Shown here piece after piece: positions 16,596 to 17,002 of a DNA stretch of 64,000 nucleotides. The notes under the pieces were generated by a model that was given only the letters and a program-made list of their open reading frames with translations, was not told the origin of the DNA and did not search any database. The position numbers and the translations under genes are program-made. Origin of the DNA: a virus (Duplodnaviria > Heunggongvirae > Uroviricota > Caudoviricetes); the IMG/VR virus record IMGVR_UViG_2778261540_000003; one strand, 5' to 3'. The number at the start of each line of letters is the position of its first letter. The stretch's first letter is position 1.

Positions 16596-16718
16596 TACAA
16601 TCGTTGCGGGTGCTTGAGGCTATCTGCTTCAGGCATTACCCGAAAAGCAGATAGAAGAAAGCCCCAGATAACATTACGCGTCCTGCAAGACGCTTAACAT
16701 TAATCTGAGGCCATATCT

Positions 16719-16925
16719 ATGCTTAGCATACGTAGATTAGCCTCTTACCGACCAAAAGGTCAAGGAGAAGCAGGCTATGAAGCAGCAAAAAGCGATGTTA
16801 ATCGCTCTGATCGTCATCTGTTTAACCGTCATTGTGACGGCACTGGTAACGAGGAAAGACCTCTGCGAGGTACGAATCCGAACCGGCCAGACGGAGGTCA
16901 CTGTCTTCACAGCCTACGAATCTGA
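16719..16925 (+). CDS. mok-like overlapping reading frame of the hok locus
   Basis: 68-aa ORF that starts upstream of hok and overlaps it in another frame, as Mok does in hok/sok loci. Confidence 0.35.
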   Translation: MLSIRRLASYRPKGQGEAGYEAAKSDVNRSDRHLFNRHCDGTGNEERPLRGTNPNRPDGGHCLHSLRI

Positions 16926-16932
16926 AAGGTAA
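16777..16932 (+). CDS. hok: Hok/Gef-family type I toxin
   Basis: 51-aa ORF MKQQKAMLIALIVICLTVIVTALVTRKDLCEVRIRTGQTEVTVFTAYESER; matches the Hok pattern LTRK-LCE-R-R-G--EVA-F-AYES; hairpin elements in leader and 3' end. Confidence 0.8.
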   Translation: MKQQKAMLIALIVICLTVIVTALVTRKDLCEVRIRTGQTEVTVFTAYESER

Positions 16933-17002
16933 GAGACCTGGTGGGGAGAGATCCCCGCCACTCTTAGTGTGTCAGGTATCCTCAATGCACCCTTTCATCT
17001 CC

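Follow-up and report, generated by a model that had tools for sequence, protein, structure and literature searches.

The closest tested relative of the toxin-antitoxin module described here is hokW-sokW of the Stx2 phage Sp5/933W (AF125520). The toxicity of HokW and the antitoxic activity of sokW have been shown experimentally (Takada et al. 2021, PMC8621323). Upon induction of Sp5, the sokW RNA is lost, HokW appears about 1 h before endolysin, and phage release is doubled (PMC8621323). The R1/F-type hok/sok locus (parB) shares the defining mechanism and layout of the module, and its Hok belongs to a separate clade found on conjugative plasmids. A third relative, hokD (relF) of the Qin prophage of K-12, lies directly after relBE; its product is RelF, a toxic protein employed in containment systems. 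In P1, the type II system phd-doc is expected, like hok/sok, to penalise loss of the plasmid prophage. Its antitoxin is a protein, Doc is a kinase acting on EF-Tu, and the system is unrelated to hok/sok in both sequence and mechanism.

The window, a stretch of viral DNA of 64,000 nucleotides that was analysed over its whole length, carries phd-doc as well as what is very probably (a probability of roughly 85%) an intact hok/mok/sok type I module at positions 16596-16992, in its identity and in its predicted molecular mechanism. By sequence comparison, this module is assigned to the prophage-borne hokD/hokW subgroup. It has the architecture of hokW-sokW base for base, including tac, the Sok target, mok, hok, the 3' hairpin, and fbi; DNA identity over 16596-16992 is 87%, and 47 of 51 Hok residues (92%) are identical. 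The sokW gene occupies the same place as the Sok gene of the window, both modules are carried by temperate phages, and no regulatory element of the window copy is damaged relative to hokW. The two loci differ in the length of mok (68 codons in the window, 70 in the hokW locus), in the Sok promoter (TTGACC-18-TAATCT in the window, TTGCCT-17-TAACCT in hokW), and in their hosts: hokW resides in an integrated lambdoid phage, whereas the window derives from a plasmid prophage (a myovirus), and the flanks are unrelated.

The toxin of K-12 hokD is identical to the window Hok at 48 of 50 aligned residues (96%). However, the K-12 locus matches the window only from 16763 onward and is devoid of the hok promoter, tac, the mok start, and sok, whereas the window copy is complete. 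The distant comparators were the Pfam and Rfam family models and an R1-like locus. Although R1 Hok is only 42% identical to the window Hok, the tac core (GCTTGAGGCT), the position of the Sok promoter, the mok/hok overlap, and the 5'-3' fold-back of R1 can all be aligned with the window; the R1 leader differs in length, with 16-17 extra nt at one place and 19 fewer in the region of the Sok hairpin. Among P1-like elements, phd-doc is conserved, whereas hok/sok is variable cargo.

The slot between repL and the structural operon

The source element is a P1-like phage-plasmid. Over positions 14600-18200, the window matches “Punavirus P1” MH422554.1 at 100% identity, and in the flanks it is 97-99% identical to P1 and P7. 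The window also encodes the C4 antisense RNA and three tRNAs, and contains 14 sites resembling the C1 operator. The presence of both phd-doc and parA marks the element as a plasmid prophage. The features surrounding the module are as follows.

14538-14554: near-consensus C1 operator, upstream of kilA, repL, ORF81, and hok (all on the plus strand)
14624-15424, plus strand: kilA
15454-16299, plus strand: repL
16304-16320, plus strand: left breakpoint, at a remnant of the C1 operator Orlf/Op55 with its core ATTGCTCTAAT kept and its 3' part replaced
16350-16595, plus strand: ORF81 (81 aa), between repL and hok, with GGAG 4 nt before its ATG
17007-17030: right breakpoint, where P1 homology resumes at the bplB terminator; hairpin AAAGCTCC-CGAA-GGAGCTTT
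From 17558, minus strand: bplB-pmgG-21-22 structural operon
23615-24808: parA
56441-57039: phd-doc

Identity to the reference P1 genome (NC_005856) ends at 16313 and returns at 17007. The slot holds rlfA-rlfB-pmgF in the reference, and window positions 16314-17006 (about 0.69 kb, comprising ORF81 and hok/sok) stand in place of about 1.8 kb of P1 DNA. A complete P1 laboratory genome without res and mod (OP279344.1) leaves 16314-17006 uncovered: a tblastn search of this genome with Hok returned only noise (E of at least 2.4), and a blastn search with the module returned nothing. At the left breakpoint, the Orlf/Op55 remnant differs from the C1 consensus at more than 3 positions. On the minus strand, the hairpin at the right breakpoint is a good bplB terminator, but it would stop hok transcripts on the plus strand only weakly; P1 also has this terminator hairpin.

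The first-pass annotation, in which ORF81 does not figure, placed the module between repL and the structural operon and took P1 to be without hok; the coordinates agree with the former, and both P1 genomes agree with the latter. Its further suggestion, an additional killing locus or an insertion, stands in part. The locus is additional, because the window has phd-doc and parA as well, but simple insertion into P1 is rejected because rlfA-rlfB-pmgF is absent from the window and the longer P1 segment has been replaced by the shorter one.

By inspection, ORF81 resembles a putative two-helix membrane protein. It matches PHROG 3772 over its full length (9.7e-54) and has no match in Pfam, NCBIfam, or PADLOC. 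ORF81 is confined to P1-like phages, occurs also in lineages without hok, and is the resident gene of the slot in Punavirus lineages that are not of the P1 type.

Toxin, reading frames, and RNA elements of the module

The elements of the module overlap extensively along both strands and are listed here in order of their position.

16574-16601, plus strand: hok promoter from the promoter scan, TAGAAA-16 nt-TACAAT with an upstream TG (extended -10)
16608-16992, plus strand: hok mRNA, from a putative 5' end at GGGUGCUUGAGG as far as the last base of fbi
16608-16619, plus strand: tac (translational activator element), at the mRNA 5' end, pairing with fbi
16657-16727, minus strand: Sok antisense RNA of about 71 nt, its coordinates mapped through the alignment with sokW as annotated in phage 933W (AF125520)
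16719-16925, plus strand: mok frame, 68 codons with an ATG start, overlapping hok
16763-16758 and 16739-16734, minus strand: candidate Sok promoter, -35 TTGACC and -10 TAATCT with an 18-nt spacer
16777-16932, plus strand: hok toxin gene, 51 aa, Pfam HOK_GEF
16940-16959, plus strand: GC-rich 3' hairpin GGTGGGGAGAGATCCCCGCC, downstream of the hok stop codon
16980-16992, plus strand: fbi (fold-back inhibition element) CCTCAATGCACCC, the complement of tac except for a single bulged base

Hok residues 6-47 align to positions 1-42 of the 42-position Pfam profile PF01848 HOK_GEF, a full-length match with an E-value of 2.4e-22 (78.7 bits, cut-off 22). The protein also matches PHROG 251 “MokW-like host killing” (4.9e-32), and its LCE motif aligns with that of R1 Hok. 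The NCBIfam models of the HokA/Hok subfamilies score under their cut-offs (NF007279, 49.5 against 73; NF007290, 38.1 against 89); on profile scores, Hok is thus a member of the family as defined by Pfam and falls outside those subfamily models. A Shine-Dalgarno sequence (AAGGAG, 16762-16767) precedes hok. The mok frame starts 58 nt 5' of the hok start and matches PHROG 37205 (8.3e-21); by its sequence, the start region of mok is the predicted target of Sok.

The hok promoter lies within the 3' end of ORF81. The 5' end of the mRNA, near 16608, is placed by position 1 of the Rfam model RF01794 and by alignment with the R1-like hok and hokW. The 175-nt leader (16608-16782) matches this model, named “sok”, over positions 1-157 of 157 with 114.9 bits (E 7.9e-27), nearly twice the gathering score of 59, and is its only above-threshold match in the window. 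The match runs in the sense orientation of hok and stops at its AUG; what the model describes is therefore the leader of the hok mRNA, from the 5' end to that AUG, and its strand is uninformative on Sok. Taking the plus-strand match as the orientation of Sok was rejected for this reason. A minus-strand match of RF01794 at 16517-16665 was dismissed as sub-threshold (21 bits, E 0.067), as were CRISPR, snoRNA, and sbrA matches in Rfam that lie far under their gathering scores.

The 393-nt transcript 16608-17000 has a predicted minimum free energy of -154.7 kcal/mol, compared with -108.8 +/- 5.8 kcal/mol in shuffled sequences (z -7.9), and 0 of 100 shuffles reach the native value. Twelve tac/fbi pairs (16608-16619 with 16980-16992) close this structure. 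When 30 nt are trimmed from the 3' end, the 5' end is predicted to form a local hairpin and the mok region to rearrange, a modelled refolding that resembles the qualitative behaviour described for the R1 hok mRNA. The hairpin at 16940-16959 is probably the point at which 3' trimming stops. A search for a convincing plus-strand terminator after fbi found none, the U-tract of the hairpin at 17010-17029 being poor in that direction; the 3' end of the mRNA may extend to this hairpin.

The predicted fold of Sok consists of a free 5' tail of about 16 nt, a long hairpin, and a U-rich tail (UUUCUUCU). The 5' tail is complementary to the mok start region and covers the mok start codon. The fold has a predicted energy of -29.3 kcal/mol (z -4.8), or -32.0 kcal/mol (z -5.1) with the U-rich tail included. 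The candidate Sok promoter was located by positional homology: its hexamers fall in the same alignment columns as TTGCGC-17-TATCCT of the R1-like locus and TTGCCT-17-TAACCT of hokW. It is weak by consensus, with its 18-nt spacer and a -10 matching at 3 of 6 positions. Because of this 3/6 match, a generic promoter scan left the promoter below threshold and did not call it, and the miss was not counted as evidence of absence.

Conservation, relatives, and sibling elements

Conservation of the structure and of both frames was examined among the close relatives of Hok in viral contigs. From 80 loci, 63 distinct sequences of mRNA length were kept; these were aligned with the window and the R1-like locus (65 loci in all), and the minimum free energy structure of the window was scored on the alignment. 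Standard pairs occupy 94.0% of cells, a percentage inflated by the use of a structure from one member, against 37-43% when the 3' partners are slid by 1-3 columns. Changes on both sides of a pair, a count less affected by the choice of structure, number 19, compared with 7.7 +/- 1.3 in shuffles, and none of 500 shuffles reaches 19. Double changes in the 5' stem include A-U to G-C and C-G to U-A, and five pairs of the 3' hairpin at 16940-16959 (helix 17) are changed on both sides. The tac/fbi helix (helix 1) is 99.1% paired and nearly invariant, with only G-U variation within the subgroup. In the R1-like locus, tac and fbi have changed jointly (tac from GGGTGC to GGCGC, fbi from GCACCC to GCGCC); this change was read by inspection as GGCGCTTGAGG with CTGAAGCGCC, the 3' end of that locus being one that MAFFT could not align.

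The hok frame is open in all 65 loci (51-52 codons), the mok ATG is kept in 64 of the 65, and the mok frame is open for 68-71 codons. The E-values and the conservation of structure across 65 distinct loci exclude chance as an explanation of the module. The 51-aa Hok-family toxin, the overlapping mok-like frame, and the upstream and downstream hairpins of the first-pass annotation are confirmed by the profile matches, the retained mok start, and the fold with its tac/fbi pairing. For the sok promoter that it had proposed to look for on the minus strand near 16700-16760, there is now the candidate described above, and the presence of its hexamers answers the objection that the locus has no antisense promoter.

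Outside P1-like elements, the nearest copies are found in lambdoid and Rac-type prophages at 84-91% DNA identity. The segment common to the prophage loci runs from the first base of the hok -10 (16596) to the last base of fbi, so that what is shared coincides exactly with the functional unit, and the module moves as a self-contained piece. This unit, 16596-16992, nearly coincides with the span 16600-16990 that had been marked initially. Copies within P1-like elements are at least 97.5% identical to each other.

The slot is a known site of variation. [quoted passage not shown] The literature on these regions terms the slot “region 5 (rlfA, rlfB, pmgF)” and describes it elsewhere as “2 orfs including antibacterial toxin”; a literature search linking hok or hokD to P1-like elements found no paper naming hok/sok there. 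A junction query of 901 bp (16200-17100) is covered to at least 80% in 262 PLSDB plasmids, which are mostly non-mobilizable, about 90-100 kb in size, and from Escherichia, with some from Salmonella and Klebsiella. Among 5,426 complete E. coli genomes, 235 reach the same coverage. The query matches 707 PLSDB records in all; of 60 drawn from these at even spacing, roughly half to three-fifths have a hok gene in the slot, and about one-third have it in the exact context. RefSeq labels the gene “hokD: type I toxin-antitoxin system toxin HokD”, and MH422554.1 labels it “MokW”. The hok/sok module is the commonest alternative filling of this variable region in P1-like phage-plasmids; it is already known, annotated in hundreds of public records and loosely in the literature, and is neither rare nor new.

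Sibling elements show two other states of the slot. In 673R5, RCS47, and SJ46, which have no hok, ORF81, the hok promoter, the leader, and the whole Sok-coding stretch are retained up to about 16739-16742, and the remainder is replaced by a gene for an Ail/Lom-family outer-membrane protein on the opposite strand. The tac leader of SJ46 is 54% identical to that of the window; its Sok stretch is 85% identical and keeps the hairpin fold. A possible -35 (TTGCTC) lies 18 nt from the TAATCT retained in these hok-less remnants, which may be either orphan antitoxins kept by selection or no more than scars.

In the second state, the module is split by an insertion sequence. About 12 of the 60 sampled PLSDB matches stop at window position 16955, and in NZ_CP058713.1 an IS421 (IS4 family) lies about 23 bp past the hok stop, separating hok from fbi. 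The direct repeat reported for IS421/IS186B, GGATCTCTCC (PMC6906374), reads on the opposite strand of window positions 16945-16954, within the 3' hairpin, and this hairpin is an IS4-family (IS421/IS186B) target in sibling plasmids. With about one-fifth of the sampled siblings split between hok and fbi, the module is evidently dispensable. In K-12, hokA, hokC, and hokE have IS elements just downstream, an arrangement reminiscent of the split copies.

Mechanism and role in the phage-plasmid

Following the R1 and hokW/sokW paradigms, the full-length hok mRNA would be stable and closed by its fold-back, and in this form would neither be translated nor bind Sok. Slow trimming of the 3' end would strip fbi, upon which the 5' end would refold and the mok start region would be exposed. 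While the element is present, abundant and short-lived Sok would pair at the mok start and block translation of mok and hence of hok, and the Sok/mRNA duplex would be cut by RNase III. If the supply of Sok ended, the stable pool of mRNA would be translated, Hok would enter the inner membrane, and the membrane potential would collapse. On a plasmid of one to two copies, the most likely effect is the killing of cells that lose the prophage, which would make the module a second addiction system beside phd-doc. Post-segregational killing is ascribed to this locus from the behaviour of its family, and lytic induction could be another trigger of the switch.

An alternative that is somewhat improbable yet deserves serious attention keeps the same switch and proposes that its selected function is related to the phage, in helping or timing lysis on induction as hokW-sokW does in Sp5. 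Once the C1-controlled kilA-repL operon is derepressed, transcripts reading through ORF81 into the hok region would run against the sok promoter; with less Sok, Hok would be produced, and both host shut-down and the release of progeny would be faster. The phenotype of the tested relative hokW is assistance with lysis rather than plasmid addiction (PMC8621323). The nearest relatives of the module sit in integrated prophages, not plasmids, and the P1-like copy lies in this prophage clade (84-91% DNA identity) and not in the conjugative-plasmid clade of R1. The genes kilA, repL, ORF81, and hok are also co-directional on the plus strand downstream of the C1 operator at 14538-14554, with only one weak terminator-like site (16552-16567) between repL and hok, and addiction is already served in P1 by phd-doc. 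However, read-through and interference with sok are speculation, and the effect of hokW is only two-fold. P1 has an elaborate set of lysis proteins (LydA, LydB, LydC, LydD, and Lyz), and the reference phage, which has no hok, lyses well. A role in lysis is, moreover, compatible with post-segregational killing.

Abortive infection or exclusion is considerably less probable. A lytic superinfection would halt host transcription, Sok would decay, and Hok would kill the cell, protecting clonal lysogens. R1 hok/sok on a high-copy plasmid, according to a result cited in PMC8621323, lowers the plating efficiency of T4 by 42% and its plaque size by about 85%. Defence cargo is common in P1-like elements, and the slot is a cargo position in which siblings hold other accessory genes (e.g., those for Ail/Lom outer-membrane proteins). 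The T4 effect was nevertheless weak and depended on a high-copy plasmid, unlike the low-copy plasmids of P1. The locus shows no association with other defence genes, and it matches no PADLOC model, a result on which membership in a defence system was rejected.

A silent relic, brought in by recombination and unexpressed or non-toxic like several chromosomal hok loci, is very improbable because every element is intact. As Pedersen and Gerdes reportedly described in 1999, many chromosomal hok loci are inactive despite their similar appearance, and the siblings of the window tolerate both loss of the toxin gene and insertion of an IS between hok and fbi. The identity of at least 97.5% among P1-like copies would also fit a relic, as it leaves too little time for selection within the group to show. 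Nonetheless, the promoter hexamers are at least as near to consensus as those of the functional hokW, neither the hok nor the mok frame is interrupted in any of the 65 loci, the helices are kept by compensatory changes, and the 96% identical K-12 HokD is the toxic RelF.

Post-segregational killing beside phd-doc would be the role to expect by default. It is unlikely, though conceivable, that the role of hok/sok exceeds that of a second addiction system, either as a switch coupled to induction, in which kilA-repL-ORF81 read-through silences sok and Hok has a share in host shut-down and lysis, or through anti-addiction by the orphan sok of SJ46, RCS47, and 673R5. If true, an orphan Sok would let its carrier take the place of incompatible hok-positive P1-like plasmids, or share a cell with them, and no killing would be set off.

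Identifying the locus as an intact hok/mok/sok module from the hokD/hokW clade of prophages adds a useful annotation rather than a discovery. The locus would also be well suited to asking whether one type I module can act in addiction while the element is a plasmid and in lysis during the lytic cycle. ESBL and mcr-1 resistance genes are known to be carried by P1-like phage-plasmids, and a second killer module beside phd-doc would make these resistance-carrying elements harder to lose or cure.

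Junctions with P1 and the reading frame upstream of hok

On the left side, recombination broke the P1 sequence within the C1 operator Op55/Orlf (window 16304-16320), of which a remnant persists; its core ATTGCTCTAAT is kept, and the six 3' bases are replaced. Two further features lie on either side of the hok module:

16350-16595, plus strand: ORF81 (81 aa), between repL and hok, with a GGAG Shine-Dalgarno sequence
17010-17029: hairpin AAAGCTCC-CGAA-GGAGCTTT, common to the window and P1

ORF81 is covered end to end by a match to PHROG 3772, and its product, judged by inspection, looks like a two-helix membrane protein. 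The frame is found in P1-like phages only, both with and without hok (the homologue in the sibling phage SJ46 is 44% identical), and its 3' end contains the hok promoter. In the window, the hairpin is positioned between the convergent hok and bplB genes, whereas its P1 counterpart is positioned between bplB and pmgF; a strong T-run is present for the minus strand only.

Naming and models of the hok locus

RF01794, the Rfam model named "sok antitoxin," matches 16608-16782 on the plus strand and spans the entire hok leader to the AUG. Taking the strand of this match as the orientation of Sok was rejected, because the model covers the hok leader on the hok-coding strand. NCBIfam Hok models score the product of 16777-16932 under their curated cut-offs (49.5 vs 73 and 38.1 vs 89), yet the RefSeq name for the identical gene is hokD; the name must stem from another rule.

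Interruption of the 3' hairpin and loss of the toxin frame

In about one-fifth of the evenly sampled PLSDB matches, an IS4-family element is located approximately 23 bp past the hok stop, as in one plasmid locus:

NZ_CP058713.1 (L089), about 2976-4300: IS4-family element, annotated IS421

The insertion site is the GC-rich 3' hairpin (window 16940-16959), and the insertion separates fbi, the 3' element that pairs with tac, from hok. A direct repeat, GGATCTCTCC, is described for an IS186B insertion (PMC6906374), and the reverse complement of window 16945-16954 is this same repeat.

Hok-less sok remnants are found in three sibling P1-like phages:

673R5 (L007), 2158-2340
RCS47 (L006), 3268-3527
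SJ46 (L005), 2708-2960

In all three, the hok promoter and leader are still present, as is the entire Sok-coding stretch; the toxin frame is gone from a point corresponding to window ~16739-16742, and an Ail/Lom-family gene on the opposite strand takes its place. Relative to the window, the tac leader of SJ46 has decayed (54% identity), as compared with 85% identity in the Sok stretch, for which a hairpin fold is still predicted. These remnants may represent an orphan antitoxin.

Cargo of the slot and other variable regions

Another arrangement of the slot occurs in a further locus:

NZ_CP077708.1 (L090), 493-1656: repL, Ail/Lom gene (plus strand), hokD, bplB

Stretches of at least 1 kb without a megablast match to P1 (OP279344.1) are 1-1202, 11495-12870, 22539-25078 (overlapping the par/rep region), 33552-34647, and 48645-56217. 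[quoted passage not shown] The cargo of the repL-bplB slot is shuffled, occurring in several combinations.
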